Assembly: GCA_030649345.1 (NCBI GenBank)
Contig: JAUSKK010000036.1
Location: 2,024 to 34,023 of the forward strand
Length of the DNA: 32,000 nt
Source: Candidatus Iainarchaeum sp.
Lineage (GTDB): Archaea; Iainarchaeota; Iainarchaeia; Iainarchaeales; 0-14-0-20-34-12
Reading direction: 5' to 3'
The notes under the pieces are model-generated. The model was not told where the DNA came from. It ran no database searches and was given only the letters and a program-made list of their open reading frames with translations. Below, piece by piece: positions 8,250 to 24,727 of this stretch. Both the position numbers and the translations under genes were made by a program. Positions within the stretch are counted from its first letter, which is position 1. Each line of letters starts with the position of its first letter.

Positions 8250-8403
8250 TAGAAATTTAAGAGGCAAGGCACTATTTTTAAAGCTTTTGAAAGGCTAGTA
8301 TTGTATACTGGTTTTATAGTCTACTTGCCGAAGGCAATTCGGAGGTATCGGAACCGAAGGTTCTGATTTAGACAGTAACCGATGATAATTTGGAGGTTAG
8401 AAT
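8250..8403 (+). promoter_or_regulatory. Long structured leader/spacer upstream of rpl7ae (function unknown)
   Basis: 154 nt, noticeably more GC-rich than other spacers. Hairpins CCGAA-GGCAA-TTCGG (8328-8342) and GGAACC-GAA-GGTTCT (8350-8364). Alternative pairing ATCGG 8347-8351 with CCGAT 8379-8383. CTGA at 8363-8366 and GATGATA at 8381-8387. SD GGAGGT at 8392-8397. Confidence 0.3.
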
Positions 8404-9006: not shown

Positions 9007-9273
9007 ATGAATAATTGTTCATTTTGTGGAACTAACATTCAACAAGGTACTGGAATTATTTTTGTAAAAAGAACCGGAAAACGTTTTGATTTCTGTTCAC
9101 GAAAATGTGAAAAAAATTTAATGAAATTAAATCGAAATCCAAGAAATTTCAAATGGACCCAAGAATACTGGAAAGAAAAAGGATTCCAGCAAGAAAAAGC
9201 AGGAAAAACTGAAACAGCTAAAAAAGAAGAAACTACAGAAAAGAAAGCTGTGAAACGAAAAAGAAAAAAGTAA
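9007..9273 (+). CDS. rpl24e: 50S ribosomal protein eL24 (L24e)
   Basis: 88 aa. CSFCGTNIQQGTGIIFVKRTGKRFDFCSRKCEKN is the L24e zinc-ribbon signature, followed by a lysine-rich tail. Confidence 0.93.
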   Translation: MNNCSFCGTNIQQGTGIIFVKRTGKRFDFCSRKCEKNLMKLNRNPRNFKWTQEYWKEKGFQQEKAGKTETAKKEETTEKKAVKRKRKK

Positions 9274-9274
9274 A
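9251..9274 (+). repeat. Direct repeat copy 1: last 6 codons plus TAA of rpl24e
   Basis: TGAAACGAAAAAGAAAAAAGTAAA matches 9375-9398 at 22/24. Patchy similarity (AATT..GTGG..CTG..CAAT) continues about 25 nt further in both copies. Confidence 0.8.
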
Positions 9275-9281
9275 CAATTCT

Positions 9282-9376
9282 GTGGTGCTGCAAGCACAAT
9301 AAAACAAAATGTTTTATGTGCATCAAAATCAGCAGATTTTGATTGCACCACGTTCGACCAACCGGAACCCCGGTTG
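9282..9376 (+). repeat. GC-rich structured intercistronic element, copy I1 (two-stem module)
   Basis: Stem 1 is GTGGTGC 9282-9288 / GCACCAC 9345-9351. It encloses two hairpins, 9294-9321 (12 bp with 1 bulge) and ATCAAAAT/ATTTTGAT 9322-9343. Linker is G-TTCGA. Stem 2 is CAACCGG-AACC-CCGGTTG at 9359-9376. Confidence 0.7.
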
Positions 9377-9398
9377 AAACGAAAGCGAAAAAAGTAAA
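9375..9398 (+). repeat. Direct repeat copy 2 of the rpl24e 3' end
   Basis: TGAAACGAAAGCGAAAAAAGTAAA. The two differences from copy 1 (AAA>AAG, AGA>CGA) are synonymous in the rpl24e frame, so it still reads KRKRKK-stop. Confidence 0.8.
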
Positions 9399-9406
9399 AT
9401 AATTTA

Positions 9407-9455
9407 GTGGCACTGGCGCAGCAATGCAACAGTGTCACATACTATCAATCCGGTG
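9407..9455 (+). repeat. Degenerate copy (I5) of the two-stem element
   Basis: Stem GTGGCACTG 9407-9415 / CAGTGTCAC 9430-9438 (9 bp including one G-U). It is followed by A-TACTA-TCAATCCGG, which resembles the core GCAsCAC-G-TGCTA-CCAACCsG at 13/20 against copy I4. Confidence 0.45.
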
Positions 9456-10474: not shown

Positions 10475-12229
10475 GTGAAAATTATGATTCGACAACCGAT
10501 TATTGTAGTCATGGGCCATATTGACCATGGAAAAACCAAATTATTGGACAGAATTCGCGGAACCACTATAGCTGAAAGAGAAGCTGGAGCGATTACGCAA
10601 CATATTGGTGCTACTGAATTACCTGAAAATAAAATTCAAGCTATTTCTGGAAACTTATTAAAGCAATTTGGATTTCAATTAGAAATTCCAGGCTTATTGT
10701 TTATTGATACGCCTGGGCATGATGCATTCACGAATTTAAGAAGACGCGGTGGAAGCATTGCCGATTTATCTATTTTAGTTGTAGACTGCATGCAAGGAAT
10801 TCAACCGCAAACTTTGGAAGCCATTCAAATTTTGAAAACATTCAAAGTACCGTTTGTGGTAGCGTTTAATAAAATTGACAAATTACAAAACTGGCAAAGC
10901 AAGACAGGTTCGTTTTTAGAAAATGAAAAAATTCAAACTACCCATGCCCAAGAATTATTGGATAAAAAAATCTATGAATTGGTTGGAAGATTGTTTGAAT
11001 TAGGATTTGAAGCAGAACGCTTTGATCGAATTCAAGATTTCCGAAAACAAATAGCTATTGTTCCTTTGTCGGCTGTGGTGGGAGAAGGAATTCCTGAATT
11101 GTTAATGATGCTGTCTGGTTTAAGTCAAAAGTTTTTGAAAAACAAATTGGAAATCGGAGAACAAGAAAAATGCAAAGGCACTGTCTTGGAAGTCAAAGAA
11201 GACAAAGGCCTAGGAACAACATTGGATGTAATTTTATACGAAGGATCTTTACGCGTAGGAGATATCATTGCTGTTGGAACCAAACAAGGAGTCACTGAAA
11301 CCAAAATTCGTACTTTACTCAAACCCAAACCATTATCGGAAATACGGGATGAAAAAAATGTATTCAAATCAGTAGAATCTGTAAGCGCGGCTTGCGGAGT
11401 AAAAATTTCCGCTCCAAACTTAGAAAATGTTTTAGCGGGTTCTCCAGTATTGGATGCCAGTGTGGAATCACGGCAACAAATATTGGATGAAATTAAATCC
11501 ATTAAAATTTCAACCGAAGATATTGGCTTAGTCATCAAAGCAGATACTTTAGGATCCTTGGAAGCATTGATTGGATTAATGAAAAACAATCAAATTCCAG
11601 TACGATCCGCAGATGTAGGAATGGTTACCAAAAAAGATGTCATGGAAGCTTTGGCTTCAAAAGAAAAAGATGTTTACCATGGCTGTATTGTTGCATTCAA
11701 TGTAGAAATTGATAAAACTGCAGAAGACGAAGCCAAAAAAAGAGAGATTCAATTATTTTCAGGAAAAGTAGTGTACACCATTATTGATGAATATTCAAAT
11801 TGGGTAAAAACTCAAAAAGATCAAATGAAAAAAAACAAGTCTACTTTCTTGATAAGTCCAGCAAAAATTGAAGTATTGCGAGGCTTTGTTTTTAGAAGAT
11901 CCGATCCAGCCGTGGTTGGCGTAAAAGTATTGATTGGAAAAATTAAATCCAAAACAACATTGATTAATGAAAATACAATGGTACGATTGCAGGGATTGCA
12001 GGAAGAAAAAAAGGCTGTTGAATCTGCAGAAAAAGGAAAAGAACTGGCAGCATCCTTAGAGAATGCAGTCATTGGCCGAAACTTGTTTGAAGGAGATATA
12101 TTGTATACGTATATTCCAGAAAGCCAATTTGAAGAAATTCCAAAGTATTTGGAGCTAAATTCTGAAGAATTGGCCTTACTGGAGGAAATAAAAAATGTTC
12201 AAATCAAACATAAAGAGAACGGAGGATAA
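10475..12229 (+). CDS. infB: Translation initiation factor aIF5B (IF-2 homologue)
   Basis: 584 aa. PIIVVMGHIDHGKTKLLDRIRGT (G1), DTPGH (G3) and NKID (G4), with four-domain length. Start is GTG 10475 or ATG 10484. Confidence 0.93.
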   Translation: MKIMIRQPIIVVMGHIDHGKTKLLDRIRGTTIAEREAGAITQHIGATELPENKIQAISGNLLKQFGFQLEIPGLLFIDTPGHDAFTNLRRRGGSIADLSILVVDCMQGIQPQTLEAIQILKTFKVPFVVAFNKIDKLQNWQSKTGSFLENEKIQTTHAQELLDKKIYELVGRLFELGFEAERFDRIQDFRKQIAIVPLSAVVGEGIPELLMMLSGLSQKFLKNKLEIGEQEKCKGTVLEVKEDKGLGTTLDVILYEGSLRVGDIIAVGTKQGVTETKIRTLLKPKPLSEIRDEKNVFKSVESVSAACGVKISAPNLENVLAGSPVLDASVESRQQILDEIKSIKISTEDIGLVIKADTLGSLEALIGLMKNNQIPVRSADVGMVTKKDVMEALASKEKDVYHGCIVAFNVEIDKTAEDEAKKREIQLFSGKVVYTIIDEYSNWVKTQKDQMKKNKSTFLISPAKIEVLRGFVFRRSDPAVVGVKVLIGKIKSKTTLINENTMVRLQGLQEEKKAVESAEKGKELAASLENAVIGRNLFEGDILYTYIPESQFEEIPKYLELNSEELALLEEIKNVQIKHKENGG

Positions 12230-12233
12230 ATAA

Positions 12234-12293
12234 ATGGTTCCAAAATTCGAAAGAATTTTGAAACTTTAAAAAACACGGAGGTTTTTTAATGGC
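12234..12293 (+). promoter_or_regulatory. 60-nt upstream cassette, copy A (hairpin + AAACTTTAAAAAA + GGAGG + T6 + ATGGC), ending in the rps6e start
   Basis: 50/60 identical to 22813-22872. The 8-bp stem CAAAATTC/GAATTTTG (12241-12260) is intact in both copies while all 4 loop bases differ. Confidence 0.7.
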
Positions 12294-12790: not shown

Positions 12791-14014
12791 ATGGCTGGAA
12801 AAAAAGTAAAAACAGACAGCAGTGCACAATGCGTGCAAGCTGAAGTGAATATTGGTTTAGCCGGCCATGTAGATGCAGGAAAAACAACTTTAACTCAAGC
12901 ATTGAGTGGAAAATGGACAGACACGCATAGTGAAGAATTAAAGCGCGGAATTTCAATACGATTGGGATATGCGGATATTGGAATTTATAAATGCAGTAAA
13001 TGCAAAGAATTTAATTATTCGAATACCAGTGAATGCCCACAGTGTAAATCTCCAGGTATTTTAGACCGCAAAGTTAGTTTTGTGGATGCGCCAGGGCATG
13101 AAACATTAATGACTACTATGTTAAGTGGAGCTGCACTTATGCAAGGCGCTTTGTTGGTAATTGCCGCCAATGAAACTTGCCCGCAAGCACAAACCATTGA
13201 ACACTTGAATGCATTAATTATCAGCGGCATCGAGCAAGTCATTGTAGTGCAAAGCAAAGTAGATTTGGTCACCGAAGAACGAGCATTGGAAAGTCATAAA
13301 GAAATTAAAGAATTTTTGAAAGACACCCAATACAAAAACGCGCCCATTGTACCCATTGCAGCACATTTCAAAATCAATATTGATATATTATTGGAAGAAA
13401 TTCAAAAAAGTATTTCTTCGCCGAAATTTGATTCTACAAAACCATTGAAAATGTTTTGTGCACGATCTTTTGATATTAATAAACCAGGAACGCTTCCTTC
13501 AGAATTACATGGAAGTGTTTTAGGCGGAACCATTATTCAAGGAACCATCAAAAAAGGAGACACCATTGAATTAACTCCTTGGCTGGATGGAAAACAAATT
13601 CAAACCAAAGTTATTGAAATTCGAACCAGCGATGGAGTCTTAGAAGAAGCCAAGCCAGGCGGTTTAATTGCAATAGAAACTTTATTGGATCCAAGTTTAG
13701 CACAAAACGATCAGCTTAAAGGCCAAAACATTGGAGCTGTAGGAATATTCTCTGAACCTACCACAGTCTTGAAAATAGAAATGCATTTTTTGGATCGAGT
13801 TGTTGTCAGCAGTGCTAAACGAGTAGTGCAAGGAGATGACTTGGTTTTAACAGTTGGAACTGCAACTTTGTTGGGAATTGTTTCCAGCGTAAAAGGAAAT
13901 ACTGTAGTTGTTGCTTTGAAGAAACCAGCCGTAGCTGAAAAAGAACAAAAACTTGCAGTCAGCAAACGAGACCAAATGAAATGGAGATTAATTGCTTACG
14001 CAATCAATAAATAA
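12791..14014 (+). CDS. eif2g: Translation initiation factor aIF2 gamma subunit
   Basis: 407 aa. NIGLAGHVDAGKTTLTQALSGKWTDTHSEELKRGISIRLGYA, the zinc knuckle CSKC..CPQC, DAPGH and SKVD. Confidence 0.95.
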   Translation: MAGKKVKTDSSAQCVQAEVNIGLAGHVDAGKTTLTQALSGKWTDTHSEELKRGISIRLGYADIGIYKCSKCKEFNYSNTSECPQCKSPGILDRKVSFVDAPGHETLMTTMLSGAALMQGALLVIAANETCPQAQTIEHLNALIISGIEQVIVVQSKVDLVTEERALESHKEIKEFLKDTQYKNAPIVPIAAHFKINIDILLEEIQKSISSPKFDSTKPLKMFCARSFDINKPGTLPSELHGSVLGGTIIQGTIKKGDTIELTPWLDGKQIQTKVIEIRTSDGVLEEAKPGGLIAIETLLDPSLAQNDQLKGQNIGAVGIFSEPTTVLKIEMHFLDRVVVSSAKRVVQGDDLVLTVGTATLLGIVSSVKGNTVVVALKKPAVAEKEQKLAVSKRDQMKWRLIAYAINK

Positions 14015-14015
14015 T
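13983..14015 (+). repeat. Direct repeat copy 1: last 9 codons plus TAA of aIF2-gamma
   Basis: GGAGATTAATTGCTTACGCAATCAATAAATAAT is identical (33/33) to 14075-14107. Confidence 0.95.
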
Positions 14016-14074
14016 CAAAACTATCGAGGCAAAGCCGAAGATAGTTTAAAGTACCGCCGGCTTTCCGGCGAAAC
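14016..14074 (+). repeat. GC-rich two-hairpin insert, copy I2
   Basis: 29/59 G+C. Hairpin 1 is AAACTATC 14018-14025 / GATAGTTT 14040-14047, with GGC-AAA-GCC in the loop. Linker is AAAGTA. Hairpin 2 is CGCCGG-CTTT-CCGGCG at 14055-14070. Tail is AAAC. The right half aligns with I1 (ACC..CCGG..CCGG..GAAAC). Confidence 0.75.
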
Positions 14075-14107
14075 GGAGATTAATTGCTTACGCAATCAAT
14101 AAATAAT
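14075..14107 (+). repeat. Direct repeat copy 2 of the aIF2-gamma 3' end
   Basis: 33/33 identity to 13983-14015. It ends exactly at ATG 14108. Confidence 0.95.
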
Positions 14108-14587
14108 ATGCAATCAATCAATAAAAAAATGAATATTAAAAATGAAAAAAAATTAAACAGTGCTGCTGAAGTGCAACGAAAGCAGCACGTGCTACCAACC
14201 CGCACGCGGGTTGCAATTGACACAAATATGTTGTTAAGTGTCAGTCAATTAAAATTGGATATTTTTCAAGAAGTAGTCAACGAATTTGGAGAACAAAATT
14301 CTGAAATTGCAATCCCAGATAGGGTATTAAATGAATTAAAAAAATTGGCAGAAATTGAAAAAAACAAAGATGCCATTTTAGCTCAAGCCTGGTTAAACCA
14401 GAAAAAATTTAAAGTTTTGAAAGCCCAAAAGGCCGATAATGCAGATAAAGCCCTTTTAGAGCTTGCAAAACAAGGGTTTATCATAGCTACCAATGATAAA
14501 GTCTTACGAAAAAGTATAAAAAACGTTAATGGCAAGAGTATTTATATTAGAAAACGAAAAGTACTAGACTTTTCAGAAACATTCTAA
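14108..14587 (+). CDS. PIN-domain protein (the Fcf1/Utp23-like PIN gene conserved between aIF2-gamma and rpoE in archaea)
   Basis: The core VAIDTNMLL...IPDRVLNEL...DKALLELAKQGFIIATNDKVLRK carries PIN acidic residues. Gene order aIF2gamma-PIN-Rpo7-Spt4-S24e-S27ae is conserved. The start is uncertain: TTG 14084 lies inside the duplicated repeat, and other candidates are ATG 14108, ATG 14129 and GTG 14189. Confidence 0.72.
   Translation: MQSINKKMNIKNEKKLNSAAEVQRKQHVLPTRTRVAIDTNMLLSVSQLKLDIFQEVVNEFGEQNSEIAIPDRVLNELKKLAEIEKNKDAILAQAWLNQKKFKVLKAQKADNADKALLELAKQGFIIATNDKVLRKSIKNVNGKSIYIRKRKVLDFSETF
14160..14213 (+). repeat. Two-stem element, copy I4, inside the 5' extension of the PIN ORF
   Basis: Stem 1 is GTGCTGC 14160-14166 / GCAGCAC 14182-14188. 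Linker is G-TGCTA. Stem 2 is CAACCCG-CACG-CGGGTTG at 14196-14213. The core 14182-14201 is 16/20 identical to 9345-9364 and 15/20 to 22517-22536. Confidence 0.7.
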
Positions 14588-15235: not shown

Positions 15236-15268
15236 GGTGAATTTTAAATGAATTTAAAATTTAAAAAA

Positions 15269-15306
15269 AATTTTAAAACTTTAAAAAACCGGGGGTTTTT
15301 TAAATG
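15269..15306 (+). promoter_or_regulatory. Partial third copy (C) of the upstream cassette, ending in the spt4 start
   Basis: AATTTTAAAACTTTAAAAAACCGGGGGTTTTTTAAATG aligns with the 3' two-thirds of cassette A (20/21 over AATTTTGAAACTTTAAAAAAC). It is preceded by an AT-only palindrome, AATTTTAAAT/ATTTAAAATT, at 15240-15261. Confidence 0.55.
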
Positions 15307-15501
15307 ACGGTAAAAGGAAAAGCTTGTAGAAATTGTAGAAAAGTAATTGAAGAAGGAAGTAATTGCCCCAACTGCAATAGCACAGCTTTCACAACTTTTT
15401 GGAAAGGATATGTAATCATTGTAAAACCAGAACAATCGGAAATTGCCAAACGCATGGGCATTAAAACAACCGGAATGCATGCTTTGCGATTAAGCAGATA
15501 A
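15304..15501 (+). CDS. spt4: Transcription elongation factor Spt4 (RpoE'')
   Basis: 65 aa. Zinc ribbon CRNC..CPNC followed by WKGYVIIVKPEQSEIAKRMGI, the Spt4 NGN-binding signature. Confidence 0.88.
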   Translation: MTVKGKACRNCRKVIEEGSNCPNCNSTAFTTFWKGYVIIVKPEQSEIAKRMGIKTTGMHALRLSR

Positions 15502-15878: not shown

Positions 15879-16079
15879 ATGGCAGAACGAGAACGAAAAG
15901 GAAAAAAAGTACACAAACCAAAAAAGAAAATGAAAAAACACACGTACTATAAAATCAGTGAAACTACGATAACACGAAGCAAGAAAGCTTGCCCGAAATG
16001 CGGTGCTGGAGTTTTCTTAGCAGAGCATAAAAATCGCTCAACGTGTGGTACCTGCAAGTACACAGAAATGAAAAACTAA
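15879..16079 (+). CDS. rps27ae: 30S ribosomal protein eS31 (S27ae)
   Basis: 66 aa. CPKCGAGVFLAEHKNRSTCGTCKYT zinc ribbon. AGGTGA upstream. Confidence 0.9.
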   Translation: MAERERKGKKVHKPKKKMKKHTYYKISETTITRSKKACPKCGAGVFLAEHKNRSTCGTCKYTEMKN

Positions 16080-16086
16080 GTTTATT

Positions 16087-16635
16087 ATGACTTTTTATTT
16101 TTTGGATATCTTGTTGTACGGTGTACCGTTTCTTTTTTTATTTTTTCAACAAAAACAAAAATTGGAAATTGAATCATTTAAACAAAATGCAGAAACCCTT
16201 GGATTTAAAAAAATTGAATTCAAAAAACTCGCCCAGCAAACTGGACAGTTAATTGTACTTTTACTAATTGTAAATTTTGCTTTAGCATTTGTATTTTCTT
16301 TATTGAATTTAAATGACTTAGATAAAGTAGTCCAAACCATAAATCAAATTAAAGAAACCAGTCCAATGCTTTTAGTATACTTATTAACCATTCGGGTAAT
16401 TGGAGAAGAAATATTTTTCCGTGGTTTCTTGGTTCCACGCAGTGGAATACTTTTTTCAACCATTTTTTTTGCTTTAGGGCATATAGGATTTGGTTCCATT
16501 ACAGAAGTTGTTGGAGCTTTTATTTTAGGCGGAATTTTAGCGTATTGGTTTCAAAAATACCAAAATTTGTACGTGAATATTTCAGCCCATTTGTTTTACA
16601 ATTTTTTTTTAATCAGTTTATTGAACGGAGTATAA
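16087..16635 (+). CDS. CPBP-family intramembrane metalloprotease (CAAX protease/Abi-like)
   Basis: 182 aa, multi-pass membrane protein. GEEIFFRGFL (EExxxR), FFALGH (FxxxH) and a distal SAHLFYN His motif. Confidence 0.8.
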   Translation: MTFYFLDILLYGVPFLFLFFQQKQKLEIESFKQNAETLGFKKIEFKKLAQQTGQLIVLLLIVNFALAFVFSLLNLNDLDKVVQTINQIKETSPMLLVYLLTIRVIGEEIFFRGFLVPRSGILFSTIFFALGHIGFGSITEVVGAFILGGILAYWFQKYQNLYVNISAHLFYNFFLISLLNGV

Positions 16636-20613: not shown

Positions 20614-22500
20614 ATGAGTAAAGTAATTGGAATCGATTTAGGAACCAGTAATTCAGCAGCTGCAGTCTTGGAAGCAGGAAAACCAAAAATTATTCCAAGC
20701 GCAGAAGGAACTTCTTTATACGGAAAAGCATTTCCAAGTGTTGTGGCATTCACAAAAGATGACCAAGTTTTGGTGGGTGAACCGGCACGCAGACAAGCTG
20801 TCAGTAATCCAGATAAAACAATTATGGCAGCCAAGCGAAAAATGGGAACTACTTTCAAATACAAGATTGGCTCGAAAGAATTTACGCCTCAACAAATTAG
20901 TGCATTTATTTTACAGAAAATTAAAAAAGACGCAGAAGAATTTTTAGGCGAAAAAGTAGAAAAAGCTGTAATCACTGTGCCAGCTTATTTTGATGACAAT
21001 CAAAGACAAGCAACCAAAGATGCAGGAGAAATTGCAGGCTTGGAAGTTATTCGAATTATTAATGAACCCACAGCTGCTGCTTTAGCCTATGGCTTAGATA
21101 AAAGCAATCAAGACATGAAAATTTTAGTATTCGATTTCGGCGGCGGAACATTGGATGTAACTGTAATGGAATTAGGCCATGGAGTCTTTGAAGTCAAATC
21201 AACCAGCGGAGACACTCAATTGGGCGGCACAGACATGGATAAAATTTTAGTGGATTATTTGGTGGCAGAATTCAAAAAAGAACAAGCTGTTGATTTAAGC
21301 AAAGACAGTGTAGCTATGCAGAGATTACGAGAAGCTGCAGAAAAAGCCAAAATTGAATTAAGTACAGTTTTGGATACACAAATTAATTTACCGTACATTA
21401 CAGCTACTCCGGAAGGCCCGAAACATTTGGCCCTGAGTTTAACAAGATCAAAATTAGAACAATTGGTCGAGCCCTTAATTCATAGATGCGAAAAACCAGT
21501 CCAGCAAGCTTTGGCGGATGCCAAAGTATCCCCGGGAGATGTAGCTAAAATTATTTTAGTCGGCGGACCAACCCGAATGCCTGCAGTACAAAAGTTTGTG
21601 GAAAAAATTACAGGAGCCAAACCAGAACGAGGCATTGACCCAATGGAATGTGTAGCTATGGGTGCAGCCATTCAAGCCGGAGTTTTAGCTGGAGAAGTTA
21701 AAGATGTTTTATTATTGGACGTAACACCCCTAAGTTTAGGAATTGAAACCTTGGGTGGAGTGTTTACTCATTTAATTGAACGCAATACAACCATTCCAAC
21801 CAAAAAAACTCAAATATTTAGCACAGCTGCAGACAACCAAAATGCAGTAGATATTCATATCCTGCAAGGAGAAAGACCTATGGCAGTAGACAACAAAAGT
21901 TTGGGCAGATTTATTTTAGATGGAATTCCTCCAGCACCTCGCGGTGTTCCACAAGTTGAAGTCATGTACGATATTGATGCCAACGGAATTTTGGATGTTA
22001 AAGCCAAAGATTTAGGCACAGGCAAAGAAAAAAGCATCAAAATTGTTTCTCCGCAAAAATTGGATAAAGAAGAAATTGAGCGAATGAAGCAGGAAGCGGA
22101 AAAGTTTGCAGAAGCGGATCAAAAGAAAAAAGAAGAGATTGAAACTTTGAATATGGCAGACAACACAGTTTATGGGACTGAAAAGGTGTTGAAAGAATTG
22201 AGCGGGAAAATTTCTGCAGAACAAGAAACAGAAATTAAAGAAAAAAATGAAACATTAAGAAAATTAGTAAACGAGCCAACCAAAGATGTTGCAAAAATTA
22301 AAACAGCTTTAGATGACTTGAATGCATTCGTGCAAAAAATCAGTACAGAAATGTATCAAAAAGCCGGAGAACAATACCAGCAACAAAATCAAGGAGAACA
22401 AGGAAATCCCGGACAAGAAGAAGAACACAAGCACAAAAAGAAAAACAAAGACGGAAAAGTGGTTGACGCGGAGTTTAAGGAAGACGAAAGCAAACAATAG
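20614..22500 (+). CDS. dnaK: Chaperone DnaK (Hsp70), bacterial type
   Basis: 628 aa. [56 protein letters not shown] and [15 protein letters not shown] lies 7 nt upstream. Confidence 0.97.
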
Positions 22501-22502
22501 TG
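22461..22502 (+). repeat. Direct repeat copy 1: last 12 codons plus TAG of dnaK
   Basis: GGTTGACGCGGAGTTTAAGGAAGACGAAAGCAAACAATAGTG matches 22595-22636 at 41/42. Confidence 0.95.
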
Positions 22503-22594
22503 CTGAACGCAGTGAAGCACTACGACCTACCAACCGCGCGATTAAAACGCAGCGTTTTAATGCGCATTTAAACAAAAGTTTAAATCGCGTCCGC
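22503..22594 (+). repeat. GC-rich structured insert, copy I3 of the two-stem element
   Basis: Short stem AGTG-AAG-CACT at 22511-22521. Core is GCACTACG-ACCTA-CCAACCG at 22517-22536. The outer stem CAACCGCG 22531-22538 / CGCGGTTG 22592-22599 reaches into repeat copy 2. It encloses the hairpins ATTAAAAC/GTTTTAAT (22541-22561) and ATTTAAAC-AAAA-GTTTAAAT (22566-22585). Confidence 0.75.
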
Positions 22595-22636
22595 GGTTGA
22601 CGCGGAGTTTAAGGAAGACGAGAGCAAACAATAGTG
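22595..22636 (+). repeat. Direct repeat copy 2 of the dnaK 3' end
   Basis: The single difference (A 22488 versus G 22622) is GAA>GAG, synonymous in the dnaK frame. Confidence 0.95.
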
Positions 22637-22665
22637 GAAAAGATAGAACAAATGGAGTTGGTCAT

Positions 22666-22794
22666 ATGAATCCTGAAGTGAAAGCAAAAAAAGTTGAACC
22701 TGTTTTGAAGAATCAACCGAAAGCAGAAGATGTAGTTATTCTTGGCCAAGCAAAAAAATCAAGAGATTACTTGAATAACTTTATGGCAGCATAA
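22666..22794 (+). CDS. Small hypothetical ORF (42 aa) between dnaK and dnaJ
   Basis: MNPEVKAKKVEPVLKNQPKAEDVVILGQAKKSRDYLNNFMAA, with GGAG about 8 nt upstream. The longer 22597 start lies inside the duplicated dnaK tail and is unlikely. No recognisable family, so it may be non-coding. Confidence 0.25.
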   Translation: MNPEVKAKKVEPVLKNQPKAEDVVILGQAKKSRDYLNNFMAA

Positions 22795-22812
22795 TTAATC
22801 AGGTAGAAATCA

Positions 22813-22872
22813 ATGGTTCCAAAATTCTTTTGAATTTTGAAACTTTAAAAAATAAAGGAATTTTTTAATGGC
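22813..22872 (+). promoter_or_regulatory. 60-nt upstream cassette, copy B, ending in the dnaJ start
   Basis: 50/60 identical to 12234-12293. Stem CAAAATTC/GAATTTTG at 22820-22839 with a TTTT loop. Followed by AAACTTTAAAAAA, then T6-AATGGC. Confidence 0.7.
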
Positions 22873-24057: not shown

Positions 24058-24312
24058 ATGAAAGTAATTGTGGAAACCACCAAGATGTCCACCAAAGGAC
24101 AAGTTATTATTCCGAAAGATGCACGCACATTTATGGAACTTGAAAAAAACACGGTTTTTTCAGTTTTAGCTTTGGATCAAAACACGCTTATTTTAAAAAA
24201 ATTAGATAAAGAAAAATTGCTAAGAGAGTTTGAAAATATTCGAGCACGCGTCAAGCATAAACTCTCTGAAAAGGGAGTGGATGCTATTGTTCACAAAGCA
24301 CGCAAAGGTTAG
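24058..24312 (+). CDS. AbrB/SpoVT-family antitoxin (VapB-like)
   Basis: 84 aa. MSTKGQVIIPKDAR is the swapped-hairpin AbrB/MazE signature. Its 3' end overlaps the PIN gene. Confidence 0.75.
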   Translation: MKVIVETTKMSTKGQVIIPKDARTFMELEKNTVFSVLALDQNTLILKKLDKEKLLREFENIRARVKHKLSEKGVDAIVHKARKG

Positions 24313-24727
24313 AGTTGTTCTAGACACCAACATTGTTGTTTCGGCTTTGATCGAAAAACGCGGTTATCCAGCGGAAATTTTTAGAAAACTTATTTCTGAA
24401 GAAATTGAATGTTTTACCAGCCAAGAAATACTGGACGAAATTGAAGATGTATTTAAAAGAACAGAAATTGTCAGCCGAACTTTACAGGCCGATCGGGAAT
24501 CCATATTAACAAATTTCAAGATTTATGCGCAATGGATTTCAATCAAAACCAAAGTAAAAACAGTACTGGAAGATTCAGATGATGATAAATTCATTGAATG
24601 CGCTTTGGACGCCAAAGCAGATTTCATTGTCAGCGGAGATCGACATTTGCTTAAACTAAAGGAATTCAAAGGAATAAAAATTATTAAAGCTAAGGAATTT
24701 ATAGACACAATAAGCGGCTGTTTGTAA
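24281..24727 (+). CDS. PIN-domain toxin (VapC-like)
   Basis: RVVLDTNIVVSAL..., EILDEIEDV, DSDDDKFIECAL and DFIVSGDRHLL carry the PIN acidic residues. ATG 24281 is the most plausible in-frame start (the ORF is open from 24230). Confidence 0.75.
   Translation: MLLFTKHAKVRVVLDTNIVVSALIEKRGYPAEIFRKLISEEIECFTSQEILDEIEDVFKRTEIVSRTLQADRESILTNFKIYAQWISIKTKVKTVLEDSDDDKFIECALDAKADFIVSGDRHLLKLKEFKGIKIIKAKEFIDTISGCL

Follow-up and report, generated by a model that had tools for sequence, protein, structure and literature searches.

Short, non-coding, GC-rich sequences that form one or two hairpins are known from several organelle genomes, examples being the yeast mitochondrial GC clusters (GC42), the Allomyces double-hairpin elements and the hairpin-forming elements of sponges (PMC4478555). 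Such elements lie dispersed in the spacers of a compact AT-rich genome, differ in occurrence from one close relative to the next, form mosaics by nesting and merging, and encode no enzyme (PMC4478555). The bacterial repetitive extragenic palindromes and interspersed mosaic elements (REP/BIME), associated with REP-associated tyrosine transposases (RAYT) or IS200/IS605-type HUH transposases, form hairpins just downstream of operon stop codons, also have a mosaic architecture, and plausibly have a secondary role as 3' mRNA stem-loops. All these traits have counterparts in the element described here, a 92-nt segment found directly behind dnaK and bracketed by two copies of a 42-bp sequence spanning the end of that gene. 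It lies in a 32,000-nt stretch of DNA (hereafter the window) from the archaeon Candidatus Iainarchaeum sp. (assembly GCA_030649345.1, contig JAUSKK010000036.1, positions 2,024 to 34,023). Judged by analogy of behavior, the organelle GC hairpin clusters and double-hairpin elements and the bacterial REP/BIME-type repeats appear to be its closest counterparts.

The explanation favored here, with a probability of about 0.6, is that the segment is a mobile or copy-in non-coding hairpin repeat whose insertion generated the target duplication. In this explanation, the 92-nt segment is a copy of a GC-rich module in the AT-rich genome of a DPANN archaeon, recently inserted directly behind the dnaK stop codon; the insertion duplicated 42 bp of the dnaK target, and the first copy keeps dnaK intact. 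Nothing essential is broken, because the second copy remains continuous with the native spacer, the ribosome-binding site, and the open reading frame (ORF) that follows. The same process struck two further genes of the window, rpl24e and aIF2-gamma. The window is a housekeeping core of an archaeal genome, with 35% GC and GC islands. Its genes, nearly all on the + strand and mostly separated by 5-90 nt, include ribosomal protein genes, rpoD and an intron-containing tRNA; the series L7Ae-S28e-L24e-ndk-dut-aIF5B-S6e-aIF2gamma-PIN-rpoE'; Kae1/Sua5; grpE-dnaK-(42-aa ORF)-dnaJ; a VapBC-like pair; and a class I tRNA synthetase. No integrase, recombinase, transposase, reverse transcriptase (RT), Cas/Cas1 or HUH gene came up in these 32 kb when 30 window proteins were scanned against Pfam. 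The parts of the dnaK, rpl24e and aIF2-gamma sites described below are given in window coordinates and lie on the + strand.

The duplicated end of dnaK

The dnaK ORF (20614-22500, 628 aa) encodes a product 100% identical to MDO8428453.1, the DnaK of a Ca. Diapherotrites (DPANN) metagenome-assembled genome (MAG). Comparison of the repeats identifies the functional gene end, GGTTGACGCGGAGTTTAAGGAAGACGAAAGCAAACAATAGTG, as tail copy 1 (22461-22502), which consists of 1 nt, the last 12 codons, TAG and 2 nt. Copy 2 (22595-22636), at a spacing of 134 nt, is non-coding and contiguous with the native downstream flank. The copies are identical at 41/42 positions, and the sole change, A>G at 22488/22622, replaces GAA by GAG and is synonymous. 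Local alignment of the gene tail with the region downstream, scored against shuffles (the measure of significance used for all tail duplications here), gave z=25.

The non-coding insert between the copies (22503-22594, 92 nt) has no Rfam match, and its ends, CTGAACGC... and ...GCGTCCGC, are not complementary, so that terminal inverted repeats are absent. Hairpin H1 (22498-22522), recognized by sequence and folding, has the form TAGTGCT-loop-AGCACTA, and its 5' arm includes TAGTG, the final 5 nt of copy 1, and with them the dnaK stop codon. The H2 unit (22527-22599) consists of CTACCAACC followed by an 8-bp stem with the arms CAACCGCG (22531-22538) and CGCGGTTG (22592-22599), the latter overlapping the first 5 nt of copy 2. 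Nested in its loop are two AT-rich hairpins (22541-22561 and 22566-22585), and similar ones occur in the rpl24e element. A preliminary description of this DNA had reported the 42-bp repeat with its one synonymous change, the outer stem and the AT-rich hairpins, and the sequence bears it out in each position. The same description proposed a three-way junction, of which the stems are present but the overall fold is not that of minimum free energy (MFE). Enforcing the outer stem gives -42.9 kcal/mol versus -43.8 kcal/mol for the MFE, and the outer-stem pairs have a probability of ~0.18 in the ensemble. In these folding models, the junction is one of several near-isoenergetic structures, its competitors being a local hairpin (TCCGCG/CGCGGA) and the pairing of CAACC with copy 1. 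The insert folds better than shuffles whichever strand is taken (+, z=-3.3; -, z=-2.8).

In two short ENA contigs from close relatives (L111 and L112), the site is empty. These contigs are 90.5% identical to the window over 22120-22489 and 93% over 22650-22849, and they run from a single dnaK tail through TAG and a 33-nt spacer into the same 42-aa ORF and the dnaJ promoter region. The additional 134 nt of the window (the insert plus one tail copy) are therefore a derived insertion. This comparison of dnaK-dnaJ spacers agrees with the preliminary description, which had favored an insertion over an ordinary conserved spacer, and the 93% identity of the flank from 22650 on likewise places copy 2 in its native downstream context. 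The 42-aa putative ORF (22666-22794) also lies in native context, outside the insert, and has one homolog (P0133, 88% identity), found at the same place in both contigs. It corresponds to the hypothetical protein MDO8428454.1, has no Pfam match, and shows five non-synonymous and three synonymous codon differences from the close relatives.

Further duplicated gene ends and a shared module

A whole-window repeat search and a dedicated tail scan revealed further events. Tail duplications around structured inserts were found for three of the 36 window genes (dnaK, aIF2-gamma, and rpl24e), and duplicated gene starts for none of the 36. The control set comprised 80 syntenic loci of relatives (1.19 Mb) obtained from an aIF2-gamma scan of genome contigs, in which the best relative among the matches listed was 58% identical; the tail scan gave seven matches in this set and none in a reversed-sequence control. 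The duplications measure about 24 (rpl24e), 38 (aIF2-gamma), and 42 nt (dnaK), with an overall range of 24-44 nt, and the repeats are spaced by 124, 92, and 134 nt, respectively, around inserts of 54-101 nt. Copy 1 ends 2 nt beyond the stop codon in dnaK, 1 nt in aIF2-gamma and 1-2 nt in rpl24e, where weaker similarity runs ~16 nt further past the end of the copy.

At rpl24e, tail copy 1 (~9250-9275; z=7) and copy 2 (9375-9399; 21/24 identity over the last 24 nt) enclose a 101-nt insert (9276-9376), which is absent from two close-relative ENA contigs (L106 and L107; groundwater, L24e 90% cluster) and present in two independently assembled contigs (L105 and L116). A GTGGTGC/GCACCAC stem closes two AT hairpins and is followed by CGACCAACCGG-aacc-CCGGTTG. 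A second extra block with a hairpin GTGGCACTG..CAGTGTCAC (9400-9452), also absent from the relatives, sits between copy 2 and the ndk ribosome-binding site (GGTGA); the Logan gene call starts ndk at 9407.

At aIF2-gamma, copy 1 (13978-14015; z=15) is separated from copy 2 (14070-14107; 37/38 identical) by a 54-nt insert (14016-14069) with two hairpins, the sequence of which is unlike the H1/H2 module. The GC hairpin of this insert shares its last base with copy 2. Copy 2 carries a TGG>CGG change (W>R) at a Trp that is conserved in 44/45 relatives examined. Directly after it, at 14108-14130, the final ~16 nt of the tail recur a third time in a partial and degenerate form (ATGCAATCAATCAATAAAAAAAT vs GCAATCAATAAATAAT). 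The start of the following PIN gene is placed at 14129 or 14108 in the deposited and Logan calls, which run through the hairpin module, and a start at 14228 fits the homologs. In a Micrarchaeota MAG (L064, 3393-3535), three tandem 32-nt GC-rich units (GCCCTCGTCATTCACTTCGTTCATGCCGAGGT) lie directly downstream of aIF2-gamma and make up a further lineage-specific repeat at this point of the operon.

Empty sites in close relatives were found at two of the three loci (dnaK and rpl24e). L106 and L107 are 94.6% identical to the window over S28e-L24e, and in them the rpl24e stop codon (TAA) is followed by the ndk start after 11 nt, including GGTGA, versus 187 nt in the window. The aIF2-gamma-PIN spacer measures 213 nt in the window versus ~20-40 nt in 25-30 relatives, a comparison that involves more distant relatives because the close-relative contigs (L113 and L114) end inside the PIN gene.

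A common module is found at three places in the window: in the dnaK insert, in the rpl24e insert, and at 14160-14215, between aIF2-gamma and PIN. It consists of a GTGCT...AGCAC hairpin, a linker, and then C[T/G]ACCAACC opening a stem that is closed by GGTTG. The copy at 14160-14215, GTGCTGCT..AGCAGCAC gtg CTACCAACCCGC-ac-GCGGGTTG, is a minimal H1+H2 module without a recognizable flanking duplication. Hairpins of the GTGCT..AGCAC type occur elsewhere in the window at 14160-14188 and 9285-9297. The inner stem pairs vary and yet stay complementary in the three copies (GCG/CGC, CGC/GCG, and GG/CC), and the hairpins at rpl24e contain two G-U pairs on the + strand and no A-C mismatches. H1 and H2, the end hairpins, are unlike each other. 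The two AT-rich hairpins lie in the loop of the second hairpin at dnaK, and a similar pair is set inside another GC stem at rpl24e; the elements are mosaics, as shown by the placing of this pair in different GC stems. The shared module accords with the kinship between the dnaK and rpl24e elements noted in the preliminary description. That description had further suggested that the structure needs the duplicated target, a suggestion that finds no support here: the outer stem is one of several near-isoenergetic folds, and the module copy at 14160-14215 forms the same GGTTG-closed hairpin with no tail repeat beside it.

Searches for the module outside the window were negative. Rfam gave no match at gathering thresholds in the whole window, and permissive scans of three regions gave chance-level matches only (E>=0.46); a tRNA scan with default settings found none. 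No convincing copy was seen in the 80 loci of relatives. The motif CACGTKCKACCAACC-N8-14-GGTTG matched once in viral contigs and 23 times in metagenome contigs, always at 50-71% GC, and these matches are due to chance, since they are high-GC sequences without the hairpin context. BLAST of the inserts against all sequences fetched for this analysis returned self and chance matches only, and a metagenome scan for sequence encoding the 11-residue peptide plus stop gave zero matches. The module thus looks like a lineage-specific, previously undescribed family of small hairpin repeats.

Evidence from an independent assembly

Logan contigs from a de Bruijn assembly of run SRR13727527 (k=31) are identical to the window. 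One of them (L105) passes through rpl24e copy 1 and the insert to 9378, and another (L116) begins at 9350, crosses copy 2 and enters ndk, so that each rpl24e junction is present in a separate assembly. A single 31-mer, CACGTTCGACCAACCGGAACCCCGGTTGAAA, lies between the last k-mer of the first and the first k-mer of the second. That it forms a node of its own suggests that the H2 unit of rpl24e has a second context in the sample. At aIF2-gamma, L109 ends at 14012 and L115 starts at 14078, exactly the limits expected at k=31 if the 33-nt exact repeat has two left and two right contexts.

The 92-nt dnaK insert was on no second contig among those fetched. L108 starts exactly at 22595, the first base of dnaK copy 2, and reproduces the sequence from there onward. 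As the A/G difference makes the k-mers unique at this point, the break suggests a second left context for the G-variant tail, perhaps an allele with an empty site, perhaps a copy 1 altered by conversion. It would predict reads of an empty allele in which ...AAAGT is joined directly to GGTTGACG...GACGAGAGC...TAGTG and this in turn to GAAAAG, without the insert.

Ancestry of the tail copies

Both dnaK copies carry all 10 coding-sequence differences that separate the window from the tail of its closest relative; therefore, both derive from resident sequence duplicated in place and not from an imported one. The relative has GAA, like copy 1, and the single change between the copies, at a third position, therefore arose in copy 2. 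At aIF2-gamma, copy 2 has lost the conserved Trp, and second copies are therefore not kept as coding sequence. An apparent 3/4 of the differences between copies are synonymous, but such a bias would arise even if copy 2 were free to vary, since selection sifts the changes that occur in copy 1. The idea that the synonymous differences prove a coding constraint on copy 2 was dropped once they had been polarized with relatives. The preliminary description had drawn two inferences that fare badly here. Its case for constraint on copy 2 is weakened by the origin of the GAG change in copy 2 and by the loss of the Trp from the aIF2-gamma copy, and its imported replacement tail at an att site is hard to reconcile with 10 shared resident differences, three affected genes, varied duplication lengths, inserts of 54-101 nt and the lack of a recombinase in the window.

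A different pattern was observed in a more distant relative, another Ca. Iainarchaeum MAG (JAZDFD010000028.1, L002), where the Kae1/TsaD tail is duplicated (15969-16010 vs ~16243-16287). The copies bracket 245 nt with a 42-aa ORF, and a VapBC-like pair follows. Three synonymous changes, one W>G replacement, the in-frame insertion of GAT and TGA>TAA set the two tails apart. To judge from these differences, both tails look coding-derived, consistent with an imported, replacement-tail signature that the events of the window lack, and tail-replacing insertions may also occur in this clade.

Mechanism and alternative explanations

If the insert is a copied hairpin repeat, the duplication would be a by-product of its insertion and not an att site, because the duplication varies in length and the module shares short, overlapping microhomologies with the target at its two ends. 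These overlaps measure 1-6 nt. On the 5' side, AGTGCT of the module (compare cAGTGCTG at 14160) overlaps TAGTG of the target, which reads TAGTGCT in the relative; on the 3' side, GGTTG of the module overlaps the start of the target at dnaK (GGTTGACG, GGTTG), rpl24e (TG), and aIF2-gamma (G). Variable length, junction microhomology and an insert copied from dispersed sequence together make up a pattern suggestive of template switching or repair synthesis. A nascent strand would leave the target after the stop codon, copy a module located elsewhere, and re-enter the target 24-44 nt behind its point of exit, thus duplicating the tail. A trans-acting enzyme making long, variable staggered nicks, or target-primed reverse transcription (TPRT), would look similar, and template switching is preferred over a dedicated enzyme only slightly. 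With spacers of 10-30 nt, only duplications that span the stop codon leave both neighbors intact, and this would explain why the repeats are gene tails. Copy 2 would then be a decaying relic, possibly held similar to copy 1 by gene conversion, and the inserted hairpins would probably act at most as 3' mRNA stem-loops. Retention of copy 2 as a promoter for the downstream ORF was also considered as a candidate explanation, but the promoter-like consensus of this genome is itself uncertain.

Several points weigh against this explanation. The evidence comes from three tail duplications and three module copies, all of them within the 32-kb window, and the aIF2-gamma insert lacks the H1/H2 module, so that more than one type of element or process may be at work. 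No donor identical to the dnaK insert was seen, and the template-switching step is itself deduced from the pattern described above. The left junction, 1-2 nt past the stop codon at two of the three sites, is tighter than survivorship alone predicts, and microhomologies of 1-6 nt in three cases are statistically uncompelling. Moreover, the duplicated tails are ~3 times more diverged from close relatives than the remainder of the genes, mostly at synonymous sites: third-position differences number 7/12 in the dnaK tail vs 21/114 in the rest of the gene (p=0.005), and 3/7 vs 9/81 in rpl24e (p=0.05). A simple insertion model does not predict this faster divergence. Concerted evolution of the two copies, through gene conversion from a neutrally evolving copy 2, could explain it, together with the high identity of the copies.

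A bolder proposal, to be regarded as speculative and rather improbable, is that DPANN archaea host an active hairpin family that appears to lack an enzyme and that spreads by an undescribed prokaryotic mechanism, either target-primed retroposition like that of short interspersed nuclear elements (SINEs) or hairpin-promoted template switching. Such a family would produce characteristic duplications of 24-44 bp and colonize operon spacers of 10-30 nt by regenerating 3' ends, and the duplicated tails would change in concert with the remainder of the gene and faster than it.

The strongest alternative, though an unlikely one, is a non-autonomous transposon or retroposon moved in trans, either by a nuclease or integrase making staggered cuts or by an RT through TPRT of the hairpin RNA in the manner of SINEs, the repeats of 24-44 bp being target-site duplications. 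Flanking direct repeats of variable length, the empty sites in close relatives, and the hint of an identical second H2 copy in the read graph are all compatible with it. The 3' end of the element overlaps the start of the duplication (GGTTG, TG, and G), as at TPRT junctions, and the rpl24e hairpins have their two G-U pairs on the + strand with no A-C mismatches. All module copies also stand in the sense orientation of the flanking genes, an argument that is weak because nearly all window genes are on the + strand. However, of the traits typical of TPRT, the window elements have the variable duplications and the 3' overlaps but neither an A-tail nor an RT in the window. A transposase, Cas1 or HUH gene is likewise lacking in these 32 kb, and, hairpins apart, the ends of the element show neither inverted repeats nor conserved nucleotides. 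To our knowledge, no prokaryotic element with such duplications has been described.

Distinctly improbable is that the module is a functional RNA or DNA signal (a 3' stabilizer, processing site, terminator or protein-binding site) placed by selection behind highly expressed genes, with the duplication incidental or part of the signal. The structure on the + strand is stronger than in shuffles (z=-3.3), but the minus strand folds nearly as well (z=-2.8). The stems covary among the three copies, G-U pairs are confined to the sense strand, and the element always lies behind or between genes of translation and chaperone operons; on the other hand, relatives at 90-95% identity lack it at the same sites, and it belongs to no Rfam family. 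Function and mobility are not exclusive, as REP/BIME repeats illustrate.

A more doubtful proposal still is that the 42-bp copies are attL and attR of a tyrosine-recombinase-type element at the dnaK 3' end, carrying a replacement tail, and that the 92 nt are this element or its remnant. The att cores of archaeal integrases are typically direct repeats of 38-44 bp ending just past the end of the target gene. The dnaK repeat, which matches the 3' end at 41/42 positions and ends 2 nt after TAG, resembles such a core, and the Kae1 tails of L002 look like two separately coding-constrained tails. Against this stand the three target genes within 13 kb, the related inserts of only 54-101 nt, the absence of an integrase from the window, and repeats that are unrelated and of different length between sites. 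In addition, every lineage-specific difference from the relative's tail is found in both dnaK copies, and aIF2-gamma copy 2 destroys a Trp conserved in 44/45 relatives.

An artifact, such as a mis-join or loop in a metagenome assembly, is very improbable. In its favor, the window comes from a MAG contig, no second contig yielded the dnaK insert, and Logan contigs break at the repeats. However, the copies are non-identical, three independent sites with different sequences are involved, the Logan assembly spans both rpl24e junctions, the breaks at 14012/14078 match a genuine two-copy repeat of 33 nt at k=31, and a loop cannot create 92 nt of new sequence.

Least credible of all is a bulge-helix-bulge (BHB) intron, or other RNA-level excision of the insert and one repeat leading to translation of copy 2: DPANN archaea have splicing endonucleases of relaxed specificity, and cutting at corresponding positions in the two repeats would leave an ordinary dnaK mRNA, but the MFE, centroid and constrained folds show nothing resembling a BHB, direct repeats would need to be palindromic around the splice point and the dnaK repeat is not, aIF2-gamma copy 2 cannot encode a functional tail, and with spacings of 134, 92, and 124 nt read-through would not reach copy 2 in frame.

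Two further candidates were rejected. A diversity-generating retroelement, in which repeats differ at adenines of the template, an RT and an accessory gene lie nearby and the target is a variable protein, is at odds with a single A/G difference, with the A in the gene copy, with housekeeping targets and with the lack of an RT in the window. CRISPR-type (Cas1) integration, which duplicates a repeat-sized target around an insert of 30-40 bp, or casposase integration, with its target-site duplication of 14-15 bp, is at odds with structured inserts of 54-101 nt, a variable duplication and the lack of a cas gene in the window.

Other features of the window

A conserved 66-nt block resembling a promoter or operator stands directly upstream of S6e (12228-12293) and dnaJ (22807-22872), with a weaker version at 15242-15307. 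It is composed of a palindrome, GTTCCAAAATTC-N4-GAATTTTGAAAC, then CTTTAAAAAA, and then ~15-20 nt to the ATG. The dnaJ block is identical in close relatives (L111, 560-599; L112, 504-543). Judging from its sequence and placing, it may be a binding site for a shared, possibly heat-shock, regulator.

A tRNA gene at 1194-1315, missed by ARAGORN with default settings, has a 37-nt intron and a long variable arm (Leu-like). With introns allowed, ARAGORN calls it tRNA-Ile(tat), and the anticodon depends on the placement of the intron. Upstream of L7Ae, a structured spacer of 154 nt (8250-8403; -36.6 kcal/mol) contains CTGA and GATGA box-like motifs and has no Rfam match; the predicted fold could be a kink-turn (K-turn) leader for L7Ae autoregulation or a C/D-box small RNA. 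Just downstream of dnaJ (24058-24727), an 84-aa ORF runs into the beginning of a PIN-domain (PIN_3/VapC-like) gene with which it overlaps, and the two are probably a VapBC-type toxin-antitoxin pair inside the housekeeping cluster.

Significance and comparison with known systems

The insertions show an entry route for selfish or repeat DNA into a minimal, packed archaeal genome without the killing of essential genes. Signs of activity are the empty sites in relatives at 90-95% identity, the near identity of the repeats and some indications of polymorphism in the read graph. If the family is active, it offers a tractable case of a mobility or repair pathway with unusually long and variable target duplications. 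If the faster divergence of the tails results from gene conversion by an unconstrained copy, it would be a small instance of duplication accelerating the evolution of a gene segment. In practical terms, such repeats interrupt de Bruijn assemblies at the very ends of genes, as happened with the Logan contigs, and create spurious N-terminal extensions in gene calls (PIN and ndk).

The organelle GC clusters are flanked by repeats of 2-3 nt (AG, ACT), whereas those of the window measure 24-44 nt and regenerate the gene 3' end (PMC4478555). Their host is an organelle and that of the window element an archaeon, and there is no sequence similarity to the window module. REPs and the IS200/IS605-derived palindrome-associated transposable elements (PATEs) insert next to a short target motif, a fixed tetra- or pentanucleotide, without duplication and use a Y1 transposase, neither of which features is seen in the window. 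PATE and REP-RAYT elements also have similar hairpins at both ends, unlike H1 and H2, and the window contains no HUH gene.

Miniature inverted-repeat transposable elements (MITEs), including archaeal ones, share with the window element a length of <150 nt, the lack of coding capacity, the presence in several copies, here three modules in 32 kb, flanking target repeats and empty sites in relatives. However, MITEs have terminal inverted repeats and a fixed duplication of 2-10 bp; the window element has neither, and its duplications are long and variable. In att-type integrative elements and the mobile endonuclease ORFs of fungal mitochondria, the 3' end of a gene is present twice, as here, with the functional copy upstream and the displaced copy downstream. 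Those elements carry a recombinase or endonuclease together with an imported tail, and their tails differ like alleles, whereas the dnaK tails are identical at 41/42 positions and carry resident substitutions. Fork stalling and template switching (FoSTeS), microhomology-mediated break-induced replication (MMBIR), and SINEs inserted by TPRT also produce tandem duplications of variable length that enclose copied sequence, with microhomologies of 1-6 nt at both junctions. These processes are described mainly in eukaryotes, and SINEs have internal promoters and A-rich tails; the window element has no A-tail, and neither its donor copy nor an RT was seen in the window. What is distinctive among small non-autonomous hairpin repeats is the occurrence, in a DPANN archaeon, of long and variable target duplications that regenerate the tails of genes.

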